Part shown: positions 1 to 36,023 of the stretch, in pieces
Position numbering within the stretch: the stretch's first letter is position 1
Layout: each line of letters begins with the position of its first letter
Virus record (IMG/VR): IMGVR_UViG_2778261035_000011
Length of the DNA: 36,023 nt
Strand: one strand, 5' to 3'
From: a virus
Lineage: Duplodnaviria; Heunggongvirae; Uroviricota; Caudoviricetes
Translations under genes and position numbers: made by a program
Notes under the pieces: generated by a model
What the model was told of the DNA's origin: nothing
The model's input: only the letters and a program-made list of their open reading frames with translations
The model's database searches: none

Positions 1-447
1 TCAGTTTCGTTTACATTTATATGTCTTAAAAATATTCACATCATCTCGGATATAAAGATTTTTTCCTGATTTATCAACGATAAAATACTTTATAACCGCA
101 GGATTTCTAGTCAAAGCATAGAGATAATCAGTCCCTTTAATCTTTTCATCCTTGTCTTGTTCGTCAATTTGGCCTGTTTCTATCTGAGTGTATAGTTCAC
201 CTGTATCAAGGTCTGTCCATGACCCCATATCAACGCCCATATGCATACGAATACCGTGGCAGGTCCAAAAACCAGAGGCAGGGGCTTTATTTGCAACACT
301 CTTATCTGGATCTATCCCGGCGGACCTTAAGACTGCATCAGCAGCCACTTCAGGATCAAAATCTTTTTCTTGAGCGTGATTGACTGAGGAGGCGGTTAGT
401 ACGAATAGGCTGATGATGGTACTGATTAGCAATTTTGATTTTTTCAT
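1..447 (-). CDS. small secreted protein of unknown function (predicted signal peptide, two Cys); possible cargo/moron gene beyond mom
   Basis: ORF 1..477 minus ends with stop at 1-3. Internal ATG at 447 is preceded by a GGAG-like RBS and gives N-terminus MKKSKLLISTIISLFVLTASSVNHA followed by QEK, a typical Sec signal with AxA-like cleavage site. Region is visibly AT-rich compared with the rest of the window. No family recognised. Confidence 0.5.
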   Translation of the reverse strand: MKKSKLLISTIISLFVLTASSVNHAQEKDFDPEVAADAVLRSAGIDPDKSVANKAPASGFWTCHGIRMHMGVDMGSWTDLDTGELYTQIETGQIDEQDKDEKIKGTDYLYALTRNPAVIKYFIVDKSGKNLYIRDDVNIFKTYKCKRN

Positions 448-491
448 CTGATATGCTCCGTATGTGAGTAAATACATAAATTTATATGATA

Positions 492-2068: not shown

Positions 2069-2094
2069 TTATCTAAAACCTCGGTTTACAAGAA
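2069..2094. repeat. gixR recombination site (inverted-repeat boundary of G segment)
   Basis: TTATCTAAAACCTCGGTTTACAAGAA on plus strand; reverse complement of 4891-4916 matches at 23 of 26 positions (TTATCCAAAACGTCGGTTTACAGGAA). Confidence 0.7.
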
Positions 2095-2790
2095 CTCGGC
2101 ACAAGCGGGGAGAAAATACCGTTACTCAGTACAGCGAATACCTGGACTAATCGACAAACATTCAGCGGTGGCCTTTCTGGGGAACTGTCCGGCAATGCCG
2201 CTACTGCAACAAAGCTGAAAACAGCACGAAAAATTGCTGGAGTTGGTTTTGATGGTTCTAGCGATATTTCAATTAGTGCCAAAAATGTCAATGCATTTGC
2301 ACTCCGACAAACAGGTAATACTGTTAATGGTGATACATCCGTTGGATGGAATTGGGATAGTGGTGCATATAACGCCCTGATTGGCGGTGCATCTGCATTA
2401 ATTCTTCACTTTAATATAAATGCTGGTAGCTGCCCTGCCGTACAATTCCGTGTGAATTATAAAAATGGTGGCATTTCCTACAGGTCAGCTCGTGATGGTT
2501 ATGGGTTTGAATTAGGTTGGTCAGATTTCTATACCACGACACGAAAACCTTCAGCGGGAGATGTTGGTGCATATACGAAGGCAGAATGTAACTCAAGGTT
2601 TATTACAGGTATTCGCCTTGGCGGTCTGTCATCTGTTCAGACATGGAATGGTCCCGGCTGGTCTGACAGGTCAGGTTATGTCGTTACAGGTTCAGTTAAC
2701 GGAAACCGTGATGAATTAATTGATACAACTCAGGCAAGGCCAATTCAGTATTGCATTAATGGGACGTGGTATAACGCGGGGAGTATTTAA
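2082..2790 (+). CDS. S': alternative tail fiber variable part S'v (start-less, silent in this orientation; would fuse to constant Sc after G inversion)
   Basis: Open frame from the stop at 2074-2076 to 2790 with no credible start; begins NLGLQELG at gixR, matching NVGLQE at gixL inside S; ends INGTWYNAGSI, similar to the S C-terminus INGTWYNVAQV. Confidence 0.65.
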
Positions 2791-2792
2791 CG

Positions 2793-3326
2793 ATGATGCA
2801 CTTAAAAAACATTACTGCTGGCAACCCTAAAACAAAAGAGCAATACCAGCTAACAAAGCAATTTAACATCAAATGGCTTTATTCAGATGATGGAAAAAAC
2901 TGGTATGAGGAACAAAAGAATTTCCAGCCAGACACTTTGAAAATGGTCTATGACCATAACGGCGTTATTATTTGTATTGAAAATGATGTTTCAGCAATTA
3001 ATCCGGAAGGCGCAAGCGTCGTTGAATTACCTGATATTACAGCAAATCGCCGGGCTGATATTTCGGGGAAATGGATGTTCAAAGATGGCGTAGTGATAAA
3101 GCGAACTTATACCGAGGAAGAGCAGAGACAACAAGCGGAAAATGAAAAGCAAAGCCTGTTGCAACTTGTCAGGGATAAAACCCAGCTATGGGACTCACAG
3201 CTACGGCTGGGCATCATTTCCGACGAGAATAAGCAGAAATTAACCGAGTGGATGCTCTTTGCACAGAAAGTCGAATCTACAGACACCTCCAGCCTGCCAG
3301 TAACGTTTCCCGAACAACCAGAATGA
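2793..3326 (+). CDS. U': alternative tail fiber assembly protein U'
   Basis: 177 aa; N-terminus [22 protein letters not shown] closely parallels U ([22 protein letters not shown]); convergent with U inside the G segment. Confidence 0.8.
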   Translation: MMHLKNITAGNPKTKEQYQLTKQFNIKWLYSDDGKNWYEEQKNFQPDTLKMVYDHNGVIICIENDVSAINPEGASVVELPDITANRRADISGKWMFKDGVVIKRTYTEEEQRQQAENEKQSLLQLVRDKTQLWDSQLRLGIISDENKQKLTEWMLFAQKVESTDTSSLPVTFPEQPE

Positions 3327-3330
3327 GAGA

Positions 3331-3348
3331 AGGCCCGATATCGGGCCT
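3331..3348. terminator. bidirectional hairpin between convergent U' and U
   Basis: Perfect palindrome AGGCCCGATATCGGGCCT followed by TTAATTTTT on the plus strand; lies between the U' stop (3326) and the U stop (3355). Confidence 0.5.
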
Positions 3349-3354
3349 TAATTT

Positions 3355-3882
3355 TTACTCTGGTTTTTGTGGCCATTCTGGCTTTGCCGTATCCACGCGG
3401 CTGACCAGAACGCTGTAGCGTTCCCAGGCTTCCAGTCGTGTACGTTCCTCATCTGTTGCCATATTCAGCCTGACAGCACGTTCCAGAAGCTGGATTACTG
3501 ATTCAGCTTCTGAAAGTAACGCGGCCTTTTGTGATTCGGTCTGTTGTTGCTGTTCGTCTGCTGTATAAATCCGCTTAACCACAGTTCCGTCCTTAAACAC
3601 CCACTTCCCTGAATCATCGGCACGACGATTGGCTGTTATATCGGGAATCTCAACGACGCTAAAGCCTTCGGGATTAAGTGTTGAGGCATCTTTGGTTATG
3701 GCAACAATAATATTATTTTCGTCGTATACAATCTTTATGGTGTCGTCCTGAAAGTTATTTACTTCCTCATACCAGTTTTTACCGTCTTCGGACCATAACC
3801 AGATAACATCAAAATTTTTTGTTAGCTGATATTGTTCTTTTGTTTTTGGATTTCCGGACTTAATATTTTTTAAATGCTGCAT
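3355..3882 (-). CDS. U: tail fiber assembly protein U
   Basis: 175 aa; paralogue of U'; directly downstream of S. Confidence 0.85.
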
Positions 3883-3885
3883 AAT

Positions 3886-5412
3886 TTACACCTGTGCGAC
3901 GTTATACCATGTGCCATTGATGTATTTTTGTATTGGTCTGAAGATGGCTTCATCATCGCCATCTACTTCACCAATGATTCTTAATCCGGTAATTGCGTGT
4001 CCGGCTTTTTCATAACGACCACCACGCGCCATCAATTGAACAACACGTGTGCCAAGTCGGACATCTCTCACATAGCGTGAGTCAAAATTGCCATAATTGC
4101 CGGGAATAATTTGCGCACCACAAAGCCAGTTACCGTTATTATCCATGTACGCCTGACCATCGGTGCCATTGGACGTCCTCGAATTATTAATCATGTAAAA
4201 ACCAAACTGGTAGTTACCAAGTCCACCGACAAAAAATTTGCGTTCTGCATGGTCTTGTCTTAACAAAGCCTGCGCAGAACTTGTTGATACTGCGTTTCTA
4301 CCAAAAATGACATTCTGGTTTCGCATATCAATCCATGAGGTTGAACCACTATTAATAGCAAACCTGTTTGCATACACCCAGGCGTTAGTTGTTATATCTC
4401 CTGTAACATCCAGACCATGCCCCATAATTATGCGACCAGTTCTGAGATTAAGCGTAAAGGGGCGTAGTGGCCCTATATCACCATTTTCCCCCTCATTCTC
4501 TCGTGTAGGGATGATATGCAGGCATTCTTCAGAACGACGAAAAATGGCACCAAAAGATGAATTAAATATCCTCAGTGCATTGACTGTAGATATTTTTACT
4601 TCACTGCTGAAAAGGGCTTTAACAAGAACATACAGAGCATCCCATTTAAGATTCATCAGGTCTTTTGTTGTGGTGCTCTGGCGACTTCTCCATTTGAAAT
4701 ATTCATTGCCGTTGTCACCTGTTTCAAACCACATATATGAATCAGTATCGCTGTCGGCATCATTTTTAAATCCAATTTTTGCCCAGTCAGTATTTCGAAT
4801 CCAGGCAAGGATTGAGTCGTTTTCAAAAGTAAGCCCGCCGGACAAAGTATCGCCATTTTTTTGCACGGCGTTCCCGGCTCGGTTTACCGTTTCCTGTAAA
4901 CCGACGTTTTGGATAAACAGCGGCTTATTGGGAATATCTGCTCCGTTCCGGTCTTTTGCCAGACGGGCATTGGCATTATCCATCGCAATTTTCACCGCTT
5001 TTGCGGTGGCTGCCAGCGTTTCACTGGGGCTGTCAGTGGCACTGGTTAGCTGAACGAGTCCTTTCTTGTTCAGGCTGGCATCATAAATATCCAGATTTTC
5101 ACGTGCTGTACGCTGTGCTGATGCCCCGGCAGTTTTAATTTCGCTGAGGTTATTTTTTATCAGCAGCGCATTCTTGTTCATGATGGCTTTAATGGACAGT
5201 GCAAGCTGGTTTAATTTTGTTTTATCCGGTTGAATACCGGCTTCTTCCAGCGTGTTTAATAACTCCGCCTGCACAATATTAAACCAGTCCATGCCGGGCC
5301 ATGTGATAACATTATTCCCGTCACCTTCTGAAAACCAGCGAACGATAGCACTACGCTGGGCGGATACGGGCGGCATGACGGTTACGCCGCTGTCGTTATC
5401 AATATAAAACAT
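3886..5412 (-). CDS. S: tail fiber protein S (constant N-terminal part outside G, variable C-terminal part inside G)
   Basis: 508 aa; gixL lies within the coding sequence at the ...PLFIQNVGLQETV segment; position after R in Mu synteny. Confidence 0.85.
   Translation of the reverse strand: MFYIDNDSGVTVMPPVSAQRSAIVRWFSEGDGNNVITWPGMDWFNIVQAELLNTLEEAGIQPDKTKLNQLALSIKAIMNKNALLIKNNLSEIKTAGASAQRTARENLDIYDASLNKKGLVQLTSATDSPSETLAATAKAVKIAMDNANARLAKDRNGADIPNKPLFIQNVGLQETVNRAGNAVQKNGDTLSGGLTFENDSILAWIRNTDWAKIGFKNDADSDTDSYMWFETGDNGNEYFKWRSRQSTTTKDLMNLKWDALYVLVKALFSSEVKISTVNALRIFNSSFGAIFRRSEECLHIIPTRENEGENGDIGPLRPFTLNLRTGRIIMGHGLDVTGDITTNAWVYANRFAINSGSTSWIDMRNQNVIFGRNAVSTSSAQALLRQDHAERKFFVGGLGNYQFGFYMINNSRTSNGTDGQAYMDNNGNWLCGAQIIPGNYGNFDSRYVRDVRLGTRVVQLMARGGRYEKAGHAITGLRIIGEVDGDDEAIFRPIQKYINGTWYNVAQV
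4891..4916. repeat. gixL recombination site inside S
   Basis: Plus strand TTCCTGTAAACCGACGTTTTGGATAA, inverted partner of 2069-2094. Confidence 0.7.
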
Positions 5413-7465: not shown

Positions 7466-8055
7466 TGCATTGGCCCCGTGGTTCCGCCGCTGTCGCCACG
7501 GTGGATATGCTTATCCGTCGATTTGCCATTGATGATGGCATCCGGGGCAGTAATATTGCTGTCGAACTGGCTTTTACCTTTAACGCCCAGACCTTTCTGG
7601 ATCTCAACGTCGCCGGTAAACGTGGTTCTGGGGGTGTCAACGGTCATACTTTCATCAGCGTAAACCTCAACCGTTTTACAGGTAATGATGCAGCGTCCGT
7701 CCTTTGTCAGCCGGATACGATGCCCCTCATGGTGGTAAATGCCTGCATCACCCGGTTCAAGATTTGTCGGGCGGTAGCGGCGGTCTTCCACCACAACAGC
7801 AATCCCCTGATCACGTTGTGCGCCCACACAGGCAATCAGCGCCTCTGCGCCAGGCAGAGGAACGCTGAAATGCCCGTAATTTTGCAGGCGCTCCACTTCA
7901 TCAGATTCCTCATCATCCAGCAGACCGACCTGCAGGTTCTGAACCTTTCGCCCGTCGTTAATCACGTTAACAACAGCGCGCGCAAGCATCAGGCGCACAC
8001 GACGCATCAGCGGCGTCAGCAGGCGGTTCAGGGCGGAATCATTTACTCTTTCCAC
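7462..8055 (-). CDS. Q: baseplate spike/assembly protein Q (Mu gp45-like)
   Basis: 197 aa; synteny between P and V. Confidence 0.7.
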   Translation of the reverse strand: MERVNDSALNRLLTPLMRRVRLMLARAVVNVINDGRKVQNLQVGLLDDEESDEVERLQNYGHFSVPLPGAEALIACVGAQRDQGIAVVVEDRRYRPTNLEPGDAGIYHHEGHRIRLTKDGRCIITCKTVEVYADESMTVDTPRTTFTGDVEIQKGLGVKGKSQFDSNITAPDAIINGKSTDKHIHRGDSGGTTGPMQ

Positions 8056-9182
8056 GGCGGCGTTTTCTCCGGGTGTCTGCGATAATAATCTTCAACCAGC
8101 GCATCAATACCGCCGTTACTGTCGCCGCCTTTCCTGTTTTTACGGTCGCTTTCAACCGGCACCAGAAAGCCTTCGCGTGGTGCAAGGCTGACGCGGGTTT
8201 TCAGCCCGTCCTGGTCATTCAGTATCAGGGTGACTTTGCTGACCAGTAATTCCGTGGTTTTGATGGCATATTTCGAGGCATCAATAGTGACCAGCAGGTT
8301 CGGCATCCAGAGTTGCCCGTCCTTGCGAGTCCATCCGTCAATTTCAGCCTCAAAGGTGATGGATTTTGCCAGTCTGCGGCGTTGCTCACGCAGGGCGCGG
8401 GCCTGTGCATCCTTCGCCGTAATTTTGCTGTCAGCAATGATGATCATCGGTCTGTAACGGGTTACATCACTGTCAGTGGCGGTCCCTTTCCGGGAGACGA
8501 TACTTTTCGCATCAATATCATCACCCTCAGCACCGTTTGCGCGGGCATACCCCTTGACGGTGTATTCGCTGAACCGGTCGCGGAAGTCTTCCTCAAAATC
8601 CAGTGTCAGCAGATTTTCTCCGAGAACCAGCTCATCAGTGGCTGTGCTGGCAGCCCGGCTGAATACCAGCTCTCCTGCGGCATTGCTGGTCATCAGTACA
8701 CCGCGTGCGCGGGAGGCACGCACCAGCGCCTCATAAACGGTTTCTGAATGGTCCAGCGTGAAGCCGGGAAAAGCTGCCGAACTTTCCTTATCGGAAAGCT
8801 CCCAGCGAACGGTAACGCCATAAGGGGCGCACAGGTCACGCGCAATCTGCTCCAGTGTGCGGTTTTTCCACTGTCCGCCACTGTAAACGGCAGCACAGTC
8901 AATCAGGTCAGCCGTTTTGTCACGTCCGGCGACAGTGATTTTCATGCTGTCAGCGGTCATCTGGCGTCGCCGCGAATCGATATAACCGGTGCAGACAATC
9001 TGCCCGTCGATTTCCAGCGTGAACGCCTTCCCCGGTGCCAGCCCGGATAAATCTGTACCCGGTGGCACATTCACCCCCAGCTCAAAATATCCGGCTACGG
9101 ATTCAATGGAGCGGGTGACAGAGACTGACGTCCAGCCGGTAAAAAGCCTGCCATCCGTTCGCAGCGTGACGGTATTACTCAT
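8043..9182 (-). CDS. P: tail protein P (Mu gp44-like, baseplate hub)
   Basis: 379 aa; follows N with short overlap. Confidence 0.75.
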
Positions 9183-31332: not shown

Positions 31333-31352
31333 TGTCAGCGTTCCTTTGCGAA

Positions 31353-31622
31353 TTAATGTTTAACCGCATTCACCGGATGTGGTACTAAATCACATTCAGC
31401 TTCCATACCCACTTTCTTCATAGTGGTCAGCATCTCATCTTTGGCCTTTTTAATAATTTCAGGAGCCATAGTCAGGACGATATTTGCCAGTAAATCATGA
31501 GGCCCGGTATTTTCCGTTGGCGAGATATCTGCAAGACATGCTTTTGCATCCAGAACTTCTCTGCGCCCATTGCAACCGTCACTACTTTCCAGCCATGTAA
31601 ACTCAAAGATAACCTTTGCCAT
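31353..31622 (-). CDS. hypothetical early protein
   Basis: 89 aa; early-operon synteny. Confidence 0.45.
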   Translation of the reverse strand: MAKVIFEFTWLESSDGCNGRREVLDAKACLADISPTENTGPHDLLANIVLTMAPEIIKKAKDEMLTTMKKVGMEAECDLVPHPVNAVKH

Positions 31623-32109: not shown

Positions 32110-33048
32110 TTAATTACGCAGCAGCGTTGAAATATCAACGTCCAGGTCTAATTCACGGAAAGCCTGACGCAGATAATCTTCGTTAACACGCTCATCTTTA
32201 CCGTGAGCCGTCATGGCGGCAAGGCGAAGTGAATGATTCAGAATGCGAAGCGCACCTGGTTTCTGCGCAATCTGCTGTAATAACTCCAGTTCTTTTTCGC
32301 CGTTAATCTGCCAGGCATCCGCAATAGCTTTTACATCGGCTTTTTTTGTTTTATTAATTGCAGTGCGCTTTGCAATACGGGAAAACAGACGGGCAAATTC
32401 AACCGTTCTGTTACCCCCCGTCATATTTGAATAAACCCGGTGATTTCCCATCAGCACAAGGCCAATACGGGTTGATTCCTGTAACAGGCGGAGTTCTTCC
32501 AGAACTTCGGCACCAAGATGATCAGCTTCGTCGATGATAACCAGCCCCTGTGTACCTTCAAGGCGACGTCGCAGGGCGCGGGAGAGCGGCCCTTTACGGC
32601 GTGGTGCGTCATTCATTCCCAGCTCAAACGCCAGTTCAGTAAGACATTCCAGAACGCTGGCACAGGATGGCGTAATGGTGATCATCCAGACATTGTTATT
32701 GGTGCGGCGATATTCACGGGCCGCTTCGGTTTTGCCCACACCAGGATTGCCACATACAACAGCAATACTTTCAGTCAGGCTGGCAAAACGCATACTTGTC
32801 CAGATTTGTTTTACCGTCTGCGTTTCCACAAAGCGGGGCGGTTCAGGTAGTTCTGCAACTGCATGATATTTTTCCAGCCAGCGTTGCAGAATTTGTGAAA
32901 CACGCTCGTTATCCCCGTTGTACTTATCATTGATAAAACTACTGATAGTTCCGGTAGAAAGTCCGCTCTCAAGAGCAATTTGTTTAAAGGTGGTTTCTTC
33001 ATTTTCTACAAGCGTGCGCAGTCCTGCGCGAATATCGGAAATATTCAT
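32110..33048 (-). CDS. B: transposition ATPase / target DNA activator MuB
   Basis: 312 aa; Walker A VVCGNPGVGKT and Walker B LVIIDEADHL; immediately downstream of the transposase gene. Confidence 0.95.
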   Translation of the reverse strand: MNISDIRAGLRTLVENEETTFKQIALESGLSTGTISSFINDKYNGDNERVSQILQRWLEKYHAVAELPEPPRFVETQTVKQIWTSMRFASLTESIAVVCGNPGVGKTEAAREYRRTNNNVWMITITPSCASVLECLTELAFELGMNDAPRRKGPLSRALRRRLEGTQGLVIIDEADHLGAEVLEELRLLQESTRIGLVLMGNHRVYSNMTGGNRTVEFARLFSRIAKRTAINKTKKADVKAIADAWQINGEKELELLQQIAQKPGALRILNHSLRLAAMTAHGKDERVNEDYLRQAFRELDLDVDISTLLRN

Positions 33049-33086: not shown

Positions 33087-35093
33087 TTAAATGGCTTTTT
33101 TACGTCTGTTCTGTTCCAGAATATCCAGCGAATGATTCAGATATTCATCACGCTCAGTTTCGTATTCATCATCACGCTCCTGATTCTTCACCCGTTCCAT
33201 ATTACCGGAAGGCCGGAAAATGCCGACAATTCGTGATTCTGGTGCTTCAGGTTCGGCTATCTGCGGCAGCAGCTCTGCCACTTCCAGTGCATCCATTTGT
33301 TTCTGTGCCTTAATCGCTGCTTTCGTCGCAGATTTCAGTTGTTTCTGGCGGCGGCGATATTCACGGCCTGCCGCAGCATCATTAAACGCAACAGGTGACA
33401 GACATTCCGCTTCACAGATAAACCGACCGTCCAGGGTGTAGCAATAAACCGTGCTGTGTAACTGCTGTGGATCAAATCTGACCACAACTTTTTTCACTCC
33501 GGCATTCATTAACGCCATGTTGTAATAAACGTTTTTCGCACCTTTAAGGGAGCCGCCAACTTTAAGCGCGAACTCGCCTTTACGTGAAACGTTCACCGCC
33601 TCGGCAGGCAGTAACAGCATCCGTTTTTGCTCTTCGGTAGGCTTACGCACAATCGTTCTGGCGTATTCACGCTCAAAAACGTCATCAAACGAAAGTTTGC
33701 CTCCGCACATTTCTGTTTCACGGCCTGTTCTGGCATTGAACATCGCCACACCTTCGGCAAGGGTTTTCAGAAACAGCTCTGCATCAACAGCGCGGTCGCC
33801 ATAGTTATCAGGTTTTGCCTGCGGATTAGGCCCCGTATATGCGCCAGCCAGTGCCGGATGCTTATCAACGTATTCCTCAAGCCCACCAACACCGAAAGCA
33901 CGTTCAACAGGTTTTGCCTGGCCCCAGCCTTTACCGGCAACAACGCTTGTCCAGTGCATTTTCGCCCCCATCAGTAAAAACAGTCCTTTTGGATCGTCCT
34001 CTTTTACCTTAAAGCGGTAGCGATTGGGCGCGCCTCCCGTCAGCCATTTATTCGCAGCACCACGGGTGTTATCAATGGTGATGTGAAAATCCTCCGGGAT
34101 ACCGTAGCGAGTCACAACATCCATGAACGAGAGGCGAATTGAATCAATGTTCTCGCTCACATCGCAGCGCCAGCCCAGAATTTTTCGGGTTTTCACATCC
34201 TGCCAGAACCATGTTTTCGGGCGGATCACATCACCGTTAAACCAGCGTACAAAGACGTTATGCAGATAACCGTCGCCGTTGATCCACTGCATGGCGTCCA
34301 GGTGTTCCACAGTTCGTTGTTGTGCCGGTATCAGATGCATCAGTGCATGTTCACCTTCACGGCAGGCAACAACCATTGCCTCGTTCAGTTGCTGAATCCG
34401 GCGAAAGGCCGTGGCACGGGAGGGAATACTCCAGCCATGCTCGCGGGCTGCCAGTTCCAGACGCTCATAACATTTGCGGAAGGCGGGTTTTTCCGGTCGC
34501 AGATAATCTGCAATCAGAAACTGCCAGGCATCCTCGTCAAATTCACTTTTGTGAACATTGCGACGGGATGCACCACGTCCATCAACAAGAGCAGCCGCCC
34601 AGTCAGGCTTCGCAAACTTCTGTACCTGGTAATACTTGTCACGCAAAGTGGATGCGCTGACCTGGTAATGTCCTGCAACGGTCGCAAAAGCCGTTTTTGT
34701 TGAAATCCCCTGGTTCAGCATTTCGTCTGCGGCCTGAACCGCAGGCAACCATTTTTCAGCAAGTCTGCGCTGGGAATCGCTGGCGTTATCCCATTTGCTC
34801 CACAGCGCCTCGCGATCATAATCGTGGGCTTCCAGCGTGGGGCGGGCGATTTCAAAACGGCCCATGCTTGTTTCAATCTCTCCTTGTCTAAGCAATAACG
34901 CAGCTTGCGTTTCCTTTGGTAAAGATGAGATATGAAACTCATAGGCTACTCCTCTTACCCCGTGTATCTGTCGAAACACCCACTGTTCTAACCTTGCTTT
35001 ACGAGAGATCGCGCTAGAGGATTTTGGAAGACCTATCAGCCCTTCTAATTTCTTTGCAGAAAACCAATCATTACATTGTGGTTGCATTTTCAA
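33087..35093 (-). CDS. A: DDE transposase MuA
   Basis: 668 aa; N-terminal DNA-binding domain homologous to the repressor N-terminus in this window; long central catalytic core; acidic C-terminal tail ending NRRKKAI. Confidence 0.95.
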
Positions 35094-35317
35094 TACCTCG
35101 AAGGCCAGAGGTCTCGTGGCTCAACTCCCAATGCATCGGCAATAATTCTTTCACCCCGAGGGTAAGGTTTATCCAAGGCATTTTTTACCGTAGAGATAGA
35201 GAGACCGTTCTCACGACCAAGAGCTGCTAGGCTTTTTCCTCTTTTGCGCAGATCAGCAACAATGTCGTATCTGCTTTTGTCTTCACATTTACTTTTCTTT
35301 ATCGCCATAAAATGCAA
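35090..35317 (-). CDS. ner: Ner-like DNA-binding regulator (negative regulator of repressor and early transcription)
   Basis: 75 aa; ...[38 protein letters not shown] matches the Ner/Nlp family signature; divergent from c across the operator region. Confidence 0.85.
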
Positions 35318-35504
35318 TCCTCACAAGCTACGCCATCAGCTACGCCGCAAGGTAGCTGACAAGGTATGCAGCAATGTTAGTGTGAATACATTGTCAATGC
35401 AATGATGTATTCAAATATTTCGTTTGAATTTCATCTATCTTGATGATTTTAAAATGAATATATTTTTGTTTCTTTGAATACATGGTGTATTTAAAGCGAG
35501 GTTT
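35318..35504. promoter_or_regulatory. operator / divergent promoter region between ner and c (expected Pe, Pc and transposition enhancer)
   Basis: AT-rich 187-bp gap with repeated TGAATA(CA) motifs in both orientations (35384-35390, 35406-35413 inverted, 35424-35429, 35453-35458, 35475-35482). Confidence 0.6.
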
Positions 35505-36023
35505 GTGATGACACAAGAATGGTTTTCAGCTAAAGAGCTACAAGGGGTTGCTGGTCTTCCGTCTTCAGCAAGTAGTATTAGCCGCAAAGCAACTAATGAG
35601 GGATGGAAAAAGAGACAGATCAAAGGAGTAAAGGGAGTTGCTTATGAATACCATATCAGCTCATTACCTGATGCCACTCAGGCAGAATTAGGAGGGGCGC
35701 AGTTATTAGATAGCGATAAGCCAGCTTATAAGTTAGCTTCTGTGTTAATGGCTTTGGTCGCAGAGTTAGAACCAGAGGAAATCCAGAGGGCATTAAAGCT
35801 ACTTAGTAAAGGCGGACTTGGAGCACTAATGCCAAGTATCTTTGATCAGACTCAAATCCAATCTCTGCACGGCGTATCGCGTGAGTGCATACAACTAGCC
35901 CAAATGCTAGAAACTTTACCAGCAGATGCGCGCAAAGAGATTTTGTCAGAGTATGGTATTCATGAACAGGAAGGTTTTGTAGCTCCTTCACAAGAACCAC
36001 AAGATGTAAAAAAAGCCGTATAA
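35505..36023 (+). CDS. c: Mu-type repressor c
   Basis: 172 aa; N-terminal domain shares long identical stretches with the MuA N-terminus here (WFSAKEL.G..GLP.S.S.ISRKA; GV.GVAYE.HISSLP); C-terminus ...[28 protein letters not shown]; divergent from ner. Confidence 0.9.

Follow-up and report, generated by a model that had tools for sequence, protein, structure and literature searches.

A Muvirus early control region with a likely third immunity specificity common to repressor, spacer repeats and transposase I-alpha domain

Positions 33087-36023 of the virus DNA recorded in IMG/VR as IMGVR_UViG_2778261035_000011 are likely to form a Muvirus early control module whose immunity cassette has a third specificity, neither that of Mu nor that of D108. 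We analysed this region together with the neighbouring B gene; the whole stretch of 36,023 nt is referred to here as the window. In the mechanism that we propose by analogy with Mu, the repressor c would bind TTTGAATACAT-type repeats between c and ner through its N-terminal winged helix-turn-helix, and this binding would switch off the early promoter of ner-A-B. The same repeats would double as the transpositional enhancer and, in that role, be recognised by the homologous I-alpha subdomain of the transposase A, so that the repressor would compete directly with the transposase. Since c, its sites and I-alpha of A must match, they would be passed on and swapped together as a single unit. The phage is probably immune to neither Mu nor D108, and a phage bearing the cassette would be predicted to form plaques on lysogens of Mu and of D108, and vice versa. 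With moderate confidence we lean towards the strict form of this proposal, in which repressor, operator/enhancer and I-alpha make up a fully orthogonal third set on a Mu backbone.

Organization of the Early Control Region

The gene order, with c facing a divergent ner-A-B across a spacer of ~200 bp that holds repeats in two clusters, is the layout of the Muvirus early control region (Table 1). The product of c matched PF02316 at E=2e-22 and PHROG 7148 ("transcriptional repressor") at E=4e-48. The likely start codon of A is also the start annotated in Escherichia phage PhiR68_1. In the profile search A matched PF09039, PF02914 and PF09299; its I-beta domain is identical to PDB 2EZK, its I-gamma domain is one residue off 2EZH, and over residues 80-245 all but one residue are the same as in 4FCY, 2EZK and 2EZH. 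The last base of the window is the end of the c stop codon.

Table 1. Coordinates of genes, domains and candidate control sites (positions in the window)
Feature	Position	Strand	Remarks
c, repressor gene	35508-36023 (frame 35505-36023, likely start ATG 35508)	+	171 aa; GAGG 6 nt upstream
c DNA-binding domain, coding part (residues 1-62)	35508-35693	+	predicted helix 2 = residues 21-31
c C-terminal domain	residues ~75-171	+	last 40 codons Mu-like
ner, early negative regulator	35090-35308	-	72 aa; PF13693 E=5e-25
Transposase A	33087-35087 (frame 33087-35093, likely start ATG 35087)	-	666 aa; GAGG 8 nt upstream
A subdomain I-alpha, coding part (residues 1-66)	34890-35087	-	part common to c; residues 8-79 match 1TNS, E=1.4e-14
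Remaining A: I-beta and I-gamma end-binding domains, DDE core, C-terminal domain	33087-34889	-	essentially Mu's
B, AAA+ transposition and target-choice protein	32110-33048	-	outside variable cassette; 310/312 to Mu B
c-proximal cluster, three operator-like repeats	35453-35495	both	O1-like by position; candidate operator/enhancer half
Repeat AATGAATATAT	35453-35463	+	c-proximal cluster
Repeat TTTGAATACAT	35473-35483	+	c-proximal cluster
Repeat TTTAAATACAC	35485-35495	-	near-palindrome with TTTGAATACAT at 35473-35483
ner-proximal cluster, inverted pair TGTGAATACAT (35381-35391, +) / TTTGAATACAT (35405-35415, -)	35381-35415		O2-like
Candidate early promoter	-35 TTGCAT 35397-35402; -10 TAACAT 35374-35379	-	overlaps ner-proximal cluster
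Candidate c promoter, TTGTCA-17-AATATT	35391-35419	+	overlaps ner-proximal cluster
A+T-rich (78%) spacer between clusters	35416-35452		positional homologue of D108 site AATCATGCTGTTA
Best IHF-like site AATCATCAAGATA	35436-35448	-	2 mismatches to WATCAANNNNTTR; assignment weak
Candidate Ner site, palindrome TCAGCTAC-N8-GTAGCTGA	35336-35359	unstranded
Extra AGCTACGCC direct repeat in candidate Ner region (35326-35359)	35326-35337

A DNA-Binding Domain Common to Repressor and Transposase

A sequence-only reading of this DNA had aligned the N-terminus of A with that of c, and both peptides that it quoted lie where it had placed them. The N-terminal 60 residues of the two proteins are identical at 39 positions without a gap, a likeness that is not due to chance (BLASTP E=3e-23). 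Against PF02316 (HTH_Tnp_Mu_1, gathering cut-off 23.3 bits) the full proteins scored 152.6 (A) and 80.2 bits (c), and their isolated N-termini 70.2 and 60.7 bits, respectively. Both N-termini matched the PDB entries of MuA I-alpha (1TNS/1TNT) and of the Mu repressor (1G4D/1QPM); the fold of A was judged from the sequence search (Table 1). An AF2 model of c had pLDDT values of 79-89 over residues 1-60, with the elements E5-7, H8-11, H21-31, E35-37, E46-49 and H55-60, while the C-terminal half was modelled at low confidence (pLDDT 31-56). Using Foldseek, the top PDB matches of the N-terminal model were 1TNS (TM 0.69, normalised by target, rmsd 2.9 Å) and 1QPM (TM 0.64). As modelled, the N-terminal domain of c has the fold strand-helix 1-recognition helix 2-hairpin wing-helix 3 and is superposable on both.

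Within each phage, c and A agree in the first half of the recognition helix, which differs from phage to phage. The segment that leads into predicted helix 2 and covers its first part reads SSISRKA (c) and SAISRKA (A) in the present phage, TNITRKA in both proteins of D108, and AGVHYRA (c) and AGVIYVA (A) in Mu; the corresponding segments are SVSRKA and AISRKA in a Sodalis prophage and TNITRKA and TNVTRQA in a Mannheimia phage. The sequence-only reading had expected c and A to recognise the same operators, and we infer the same, since these helix residues are common to the two proteins and a motif is repeated in the spacer. Overall similarity between c and A was dropped as an argument for specificity. 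The repressor is most like its own transposase in the present phage, in Mu and in the Mannheimia phage, but not in the Sodalis prophage or in D108, whose c has a higher score with the A of the present phage, 180, as compared with 158 for its own A; the specificity argument therefore rests on a few helix residues.

Divergence from Mu and D108 and the Limits of the Cassette

As the sequence-only reading had supposed, the N-termini are unlike those of Mu, and high identity to Mu c or A was not found. The A N-terminal domain is identical to Mu A at 25/59 and to D108 A at 29/59 residues; the DNA-binding domain of c is ~40% identical to that of Mu c, and whole c has 84/181 residues in common with Mu c and 70/174 (40%) with D108 c. 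Against D108 the DNA-binding domains reach 49-55%, and Ner is identical to D108 Ner at 45/69 and to Mu Ner at 32/66 positions. By comparison, SfMu, which has a D108-type cassette, matches D108 at 58/61 residues of the A N-terminal domain and 156/174 of c. We found neither the near-identity to Mu in c and the A N-terminus that Mu-type Yersinia phage vB_YpM_3 shows, nor the near-identity to D108 in c, ner and the A N-terminus that SfMu shows, and these identities together with the spacer motifs rule out that the cassette is simply that of D108. From the two types that the sequence-only reading had offered, D108-like or other heteroimmune, the former can be discarded and the latter retained, with heteroimmunity as what the divergence suggests.

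Beyond I-alpha, A is ~99% identical to Mu and to D108 alike (594/601), as is B (308-310/312). A sliding window placed breakpoints of identity at ~34890-34930 and ~35905. In a megablast of the region, identity to Mu and D108 ended at query positions 1839 and 1801, respectively, and no D108 match beyond the A core was returned. On this comparison, there is a ~1-kb putative immunity cassette (~34900-35900) within a genome that is otherwise 97-98% Mu. Of A it takes in the first 60-65 codons, and of c the DNA-binding and central parts, together with ner and the operator/enhancer spacer; it ends inside c on one side and, on the other, where I-alpha of A joins I-beta. Its DNA-binding domains and its Ner resemble D108 more closely than Mu, and the last 40 codons of c are nearer to Mu, with 78-90% identity at the DNA level.

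Repeats and Candidate Sites in the c-ner Spacer

The Mu enhancer, which is bound by the I-alpha subdomain of MuA (PMC3362531), overlaps the operators O1-O3, and its MuA sites fall into two clusters with an IHF site between them (PMC3145075). The c-ner spacer of the present phage contains five TTTGAATACAT-type repeats in two clusters (Table 1). Allowing up to two mismatches, TTTGAATACAT has 13 matches in the window, of which four fall within 115 bp (~0.04 expected), and of the four places where the window has an exact TGAATACAT 9-mer, three are within 100 bp of the spacer. The c-proximal repeats are mostly kept in diverged prophages, and we infer that this cluster would be the counterpart of Mu O1 (PMC3145075). 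The TTTGAATACAT-type motif was absent from the spacers of Mu, N1286 and D108 (the last with up to two mismatches allowed). The D108 motif TGAAATCAY occurs four times in the D108 spacer and at most once, in weak form, in the present one. As the repeat cores TGAATACAT (present phage) and TGAAATCAT (D108) differ at only ~3/9 positions, partial cross-recognition with D108 may nevertheless occur.

The candidate early promoter was identified by visual inspection and by comparison with the aligned D108 stretch CACACTACATTGC, and scores only 8/12; an automatic sigma-70 scan picked out a single site, on the plus strand, and did not detect an early promoter. Between the clusters, the scan for the IHF consensus found only sites with two mismatches, although it recovered a perfect match in the corresponding spacer of Mu and a one-mismatch site in that of D108. 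This inter-cluster stretch is the most variable among related prophages. The core of the candidate Ner site, AGCTAC-N8-GTAGCT, occurs a single time in the window (0 expected), and five diverged prophages show no change in the site; at the matching position D108 has GTGAGCTAC-N8-GTAGCTCAC.

Occurrence of the Cassette and Co-residence with Other Types

PhiR68_1 (PV340575.1) is 100% identical over 33087-36023, and the cassette is thus already in GenBank. The same cassette is present at 95-100% identity in prophages of 15 of 5426 complete E. coli genomes. The records name its genes just "repressor", "Ner" or "DNA-binding protein", and we found no paper that describes the cassette as an immunity type. 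In the protein database, the 90% cluster of the c protein is represented on 844 contigs, whose names include Salmonella and E. coli; a search of one genome per species gave no match to c, which is expected of a sporadic prophage and is uninformative on host range. One chromosome, that of E. coli 22KM0354, carries Mu-type, D108-type and present-type cassettes at three loci, each with an A core, and the D108-type and present-type prophages, whose sequences were read, are both full length. E. coli MIN10 carries a Mu-type and the present cassette. The co-residence of prophages in 22KM0354 and MIN10 suggests separate specificities. We count against this argument the case of cS51a, where the present cassette apparently occupies two places.

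It is unlikely that the cassette functions as a D108 type, with c and I-alpha reading D108 operators and the phage homoimmune, or partly cross-immune, with D108 despite 45-50% divergence. Ner and the DNA-binding domains are indeed closer to D108 than to Mu, the latter also in the cross-comparisons of c with D108 A (32/59) and of D108 c with the present A (34/64); the helix segment ends in RKA in both phages, their repeat cores are related and the core of the Ner palindrome is the same. However, the positions before RKA differ, with SSIS/SAIS here and TNIT in D108, and neither spacer carries the motif of the other, the D108 motif being essentially absent here. A full-length D108-type prophage lies in one chromosome with a present-type prophage in 22KM0354, and two D108-type copies were found in 0/45 D108-type genomes.

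Age of the Similarity between c and A

Over 174 aligned bases the DNA of c and A is 60% identical, with a longest identical run of 8 nt; third codon positions match at 19/58, and the same codon is used for just 16 of the 39 identical residues. We compared five E. coli prophages in which the cassette DNA has diverged by 3-5%. The DNA-binding domain of c has 0-1 substitutions in them and the C-terminal part of c 7-9, and I-alpha of A has none. As judged from these substitutions, the similarity between c and A is old and maintained by selection, because third positions are saturated and the binding domains are near-invariant in diverged prophages.

We consider it very unlikely that c and A have only fold ancestry in common, in which case I-alpha would not read the repressor sites, or no enhancer would be used, and there would be no competition. 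An enhancer-independent MuA reaction does occur in minimal systems (PMC3362531), and domain sharing is not obligatory in this phage group, given the HTH_3 repressor of N1286/SE11. Yet 65% of residues, including the type-specific helix residues, have been kept while synonymous sites became saturated, I-alpha is invariant across diverged prophages, and recombination has cut A precisely between I-alpha and I-beta, the place to be expected if I-alpha has to travel with the operators. A recent intragenomic duplication or gene conversion, which would give the likeness no regulatory meaning and could draw on the higher c/A identity here (65-67%, vs 42% in Mu and 55% in D108), is hardly credible and is ruled out by the saturated third codon positions, the scarcity of common codons and the short identical runs.

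Implications for Mu Immunity and Transposition

The principle that repressor and transposase share a DNA-binding domain has been known for Mu and D108 since 1985-86, and the picture of Mu regulation is unchanged; according to the citing passage in PMC3820752, the c/A homology of the two phages dates to Harshey 1985 and Mizuuchi 1986. The third-specificity cassette proposed here would place another matched set beside Mu and D108, the pair that established competition between transposase and repressor for one DNA element. Comparison of three sets can narrow the putative determinants of specificity to a handful, namely S(S/A)IS, TNIT and AGV(H/I) in helix 2 of the proteins and the centre of the ~11-bp repeat in the DNA. 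A third specificity would also explain how two or three nearly identical Mu prophages come to reside within one E. coli strain, and could offer an orthogonal set of enhancer, I-alpha and repressor for Mu-based genome engineering.

If the set is truly orthogonal, it would form with Mu, D108 and the type with an HTH_3 repressor a natural series of interchangeable immunity cassettes. A cell such as the triple lysogen 22KM0354 could then harbour several Mu prophages, each of them transposing independently of the others. Such a set would provide a third pairing of proteins and sites from which to learn how a few helix-2 residues set the specificity of a winged helix, and it would be a basis for mutually non-interfering Mu transposition tools.

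Comparison with Known Muvirus Systems

The present phage resembles Mu in the order of c, operators and divergent ner-A-B, in the PF02316 winged helix-turn-helix of both c and A, and in the two clusters of spacer repeats. B is 99% identical, as are the catalytic core and the I-beta and I-gamma domains of A, and the C-terminal ...VKKAV of Mu c is kept. In contrast, Mu has AGV(H/I)Y(R/V)A in the helix-2 segment where the present phage has S(S/A)ISRKA, the wing of Mu has an extra glycine (GVKGGKA vs GVKGVA here), and Mu c has 196 aa with a longer N-terminal arm as compared with 171 aa. The one 12-bp stretch of the Mu spacer that matched the Mu operator consensus, CTTTTCAGTAAT, has no counterpart in the present phage, nor does its perfect IHF consensus.

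Muvirus prophages of the N1286/SE11 type, found in 2 of 5426 E. coli genomes, have the same backbone and are similar in the A core (97%) and in the last 120 bp of c (82-100%). Their repressor, however, has an N-terminus of the Pfam HTH_3 family (XRE/lambda-cI-like) and not of PF02316, while I-alpha of their A is a further divergent PF02316 variant, so that repressor and transposase have no DNA-binding domain in common there.

D108, with SfMu and Mu_3F6, represents the classical second Mu immunity type. It has a similarly short c (171-174 aa) as well as the closest DNA-binding domains and the closest Ner (65%); the RKA end of the helix segment and the core of the Ner palindrome are common to both, and where the early promoter is presumed to lie the two have a similar stretch, CACACTA(A)CATTGC. 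It differs in TNIT as against S(S/A)IS, in its repeat core, TGAAATCAY as against TGAATACAT, and in the C-terminal half of c, which is unrelated in DNA (~55%), whereas that of the present phage is Mu-like. SfMu is 90-95% identical to D108 in the cassette parts, compared with 40-50% for the present cassette. PhiR68_1 carries the same cassette on a different backbone, with 36,686 bp between the stop codon of c and that of the last ORF vs 36,023 bp here.

Gene Layout and Comparison with Mu and D108

The window represents the genome of a Mu-family phage, oriented right to left, and its final 3.9 kb carry B, the transposase gene A, ner, a 199-bp spacer and the repressor gene c, whose stop codon is the end of the window. 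Mechanical ORF calling started A at TTG 35093 and c at GTG 35505, both probably wrong; we prefer the ATG codons listed in the table because GAGG lies upstream of each and the GenBank annotation uses the same starts.

Coordinates of genes and motif copies in the window and of Mu-family prophages in E. coli 22KM0354
Feature	Sequence	Position	Strand	Remark
B	window	32110-33048	-	
A	window	33087-35087	-	ATG 35087, GAGG 8 nt upstream
ner	window	35090-35308	-	
c	window	35508-36023	+	ATG 35508, GAGG 6 nt upstream
Motif copy 1	window	35381-91	+	
Motif copy 2	window	35405-15	-	
Motif copy 3	window	35453-63	+	degenerate
Motif copy 4	window	35473-83	+	
Motif copy 5	window	35485-95	-	
Prophage	22KM0354	1459680-1496000		window-type (locus L008)
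Prophage	22KM0354	888800-925100		D108-type (locus L009)
Prophage	22KM0354	about 3621693		Mu-type

The control region excepted, the backbone shows 97-98% identity with Mu along most of its length. At the gp7 position lies an unrelated 89-aa ORF (31353-31622; PHROG 2230, unknown function), at a mosaic spot relative to Mu (31347-31603). Mu 7672-8149 (gp14/gp15 area) is absent at the window junction 28721/28722, and the invertible tail-fibre (G) segment (2094-4612) is just 70-85% identical to Mu. Positions 1-507 have no match in Mu; here, at the right end downstream of mom, a 158-aa ORF without Mu counterpart (1-477, minus strand) begins with a signal peptide-like sequence (MKKSKLLISTIISLFVLTASSVNHAQE) and matches PHROG 15648, of unknown function. 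Its PhiR68_1 counterpart is annotated 'D108-specific protein'; a role as lysogeny cargo or as a moron is possible.

Among 50,697 phage records searched by megablast, Escherichia phage PhiR68_1 alone matched over the full length (100%), and the matches of Mu and D108 ended at query positions 1839 and 1801, within the A 5' end. The N-terminal DNA-binding domain of A (I-alpha) shares 25 of 59 residues with Mu and 29 of 59 with D108, whereas the other 601 residues share 594 with either phage and B 308-310 of 312. Ner is likewise divergent (32/66 to Mu, 45/69 to D108), and c has 46% identity with its Mu and 40% with its D108 counterpart. SfMu, which has a D108-type cassette, provides a benchmark for phages of the same type, with 156/174 identities to D108 in c and 58/61 in the A N-terminus; by sequence, the window is far from this level. 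The sequence-only reading had proposed N-termini unlike those of Mu, which alignment with Mu and D108 bears out, the high identity to Mu that would speak against it being absent. Of the two types it offered, D108-like or otherwise heteroimmune, the first does not fit these identities and the second does.

A 40-nt sliding comparison bounded the variable block at ~34890-34930 in A (codons ~55-65, the I-alpha/I-beta junction) and at ~35905 in c (codon ~133). Identity over the final 120 bp of c is 78-90% with Mu but just ~55% with D108. The block is thus a mosaic, with ner and the DNA-binding domains closer to D108 and the tail of c closer to Mu.

A DNA-Binding Domain Common to Repressor and Transposase

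The c and A N-termini, proposed from the sequence to be directly alignable, are both present and align without gaps (BLASTP, 39/60 identities, E=3e-23). Both match Pfam PF02316 ('Mu DNA-binding domain') and, by sequence, MuA I-alpha (1TNS/1TNT) and the Mu repressor domain (1G4D/1QPM). The AlphaFold model of c is confident over residues 1-60 (pLDDT 79-89); its best PDB matches are 1TNS (TM 0.69) and 1QPM (TM 0.64), with no other significant match in the PDB. The likeness between c and A is old rather than recent, since their DNA identity is 60%, third codon positions agree at 19 of 58 and conserved residues use the same codon at 16 of 39. Five E. coli prophages with cassettes 3-5% diverged in DNA show 0-1 substitutions in the DNA-binding domain of c, none in A I-alpha and 7-9 in the C-terminal part of c.

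The c and A domains of the window, Mu and D108 were aligned together and scored, with SfMu and the N1286 A domain aligned but unscored. Ten columns are invariant, six are identical inside every c/A pair and different between types, and five more are common to the window pair alone. The type-specific columns cluster from just before predicted helix 2 (c residues 21-31) through its start, a segment reading SSISRKA in c and SAISRKA in A of the window, TNITRKA in both proteins of D108, and AGVHYRA and AGVIYVA in Mu. The c and A segments of a Sodalis prophage (SVSRKA, AISRKA) and of Mannheimia phage 3927AP2 (TNITRKA, TNVTRQA) fit this sharing within pairs. Overall similarity is not always highest within a genome: D108 c scores higher on window A than on D108 A, so the argument for c/A specificity rests on the helix residues. 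The Sodalis sp. remnant (L018, contig JBLKSS010000061.1, 56-3046), whose repressor recognition helix SSPNSVSRKA resembles the window type, is probably decaying, because a frameshift separates a 52-aa I-alpha fragment from the other 627 aa of its transposase.

Repeats in the c-ner Spacer

An 11-bp motif (consensus TTTGAATACAT) occurs five times in the spacer. Three of the four occurrences of the exact 9-mer TGAATACAT in the 36-kb window fall inside 100 bp of the spacer, as do, inside 115 bp, 4 of 13 window matches with <=2 mismatches (~0.04 expected). The five copies fall into two clusters with a 78% A+T stretch between them, an arrangement reported for Mu, in which two clusters of MuA sites flank an IHF site and overlap operators O1-O3 (PMC3145075). 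A good IHF consensus was not found in the window spacer, whereas the same scan recovered IHF sites in Mu (perfect) and D108 (1 mismatch). The 11-bp motif, at <=2 mismatches, was not found in the Mu, D108 or N1286 spacers; in D108 a repeat of its own, TGAAATCAY, occurs four times. Diverged prophages mostly retain the copies and vary chiefly in the stretch between clusters. The ner-proximal pair flanks a candidate early promoter on the minus strand (TTGCAT-17-TAACAT, 8/12, read by eye) and also overlaps a plus-strand candidate promoter for c.

Adjacent to ner, a palindrome TCAGCTAC-N8-GTAGCTGA, whose core AGCTAC-N8-GTAGCT occurs once in the window, corresponds to GTGAGCTAC-N8-GTAGCTCAC in D108 and is a likely Ner site. 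Positions 35326-35359 hold three AGCTAC/GTAGCT half-sites, that is, the palindrome and one additional direct repeat, whereas D108 has the palindrome alone; window Ner may bind an extended site.

Distribution among E. coli

In 5426 complete E. coli genomes, the A core common to these phages occurs at 102 places in 89 genomes. The full window-type cassette is present in 15 genomes, the Mu type in 25 (often laboratory strains), the D108 type in 45 and a fourth type in two. Strain 22KM0354 (NZ_CP151071.1; dog blood isolate) has three A cores, with one Mu-type, one D108-type and one window-type cassette; on reading, the latter two prophages proved full length, each inserted within a host gene that it interrupts. 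MIN10 carries Mu-type and window-type cassettes. No genome with two D108-type copies was found among the 45. Co-residence of different types and the lack of D108-type doubles match the prediction of heteroimmunity, as circumstantial evidence. In E. coli cS51a (NZ_CM176585.1; one place is locus L014), the window-type cassette and the A core each occur at two places, reflecting either a double lysogen of one immunity type or a partial copy.

The 22KM0354 cassette matches the window at 100% identity and the neighbouring A core at just 97.2%, while other strains combine an A core of 100% identity with a cassette of 99.7%; the cassette therefore moves between backbones. The repressor falls in a 90% protein cluster of 109 sequences, found on 844 contigs of Salmonella enterica and E. 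coli and named solely 'DNA-binding protein'. The database protein P0012 (134 aa) combines part of a tyrosine recombinase with the C-terminal half of Mu c. In E. coli MFDpir (NZ_CP060708.1, 3906311-3906612) only the first 302 bp of the Mu-type query match, beside a recombinase gene; P0012 probably corresponds to the engineered Mu deletion of this laboratory strain, and is likely a strain-construction artefact rather than a natural fusion.

The fourth Muvirus immunity type occurs in E. coli N1286 (L007, NZ_CP178401.1, 3992-4997) and SE11. Its 202-aa repressor retains a Mu/window-like C-terminal domain but has an N-terminal Pfam HTH_3 domain (XRE/lambda-cI-like) instead of the Mu winged helix, whereas the transposase still has a divergent PF02316 I-alpha. 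The two thus have no DNA-binding domain in common, which raises the question of how transposition is repressed.

Mechanism and Relation to Known Immunity Types

The cassette sequence is already public in PhiR68_1, with genes annotated 'repressor', 'Ner' and 'DNA transposition protein'. The sole paper mentioning PhiR68 phages concerns a defence nuclease and does not treat immunity, and in a literature search of limited scope no account of a third type of Mu immunity turned up.

Mu and D108 are heteroimmune, and the transposase of each favours its own enhancer. The control principle, a domain common to c and A, is textbook: the c/A homology of Mu and D108 dates to work by Harshey et al. (1985) and Mizuuchi et al. 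(1986), cited in PMC3820752, and in Mu the enhancer is bound by MuA I-alpha (PMC3362531) and overlaps the operators (PMC3145075). In the window, the homology, fold, cassette boundaries, c/A helix residues, clustered repeats and co-residence are observed directly. By analogy with Mu, c would bind the spacer repeats and turn off the early promoter, and A I-alpha would use the same repeats as a transpositional enhancer; since both would share these sites, c would block transcription and transpososome assembly alike, with a specificity differing from those of Mu and D108. On every criterion open to testing the region belongs to the Mu control-module family and, judged by its sequence, it lies outside both the Mu and the D108 immunity types.
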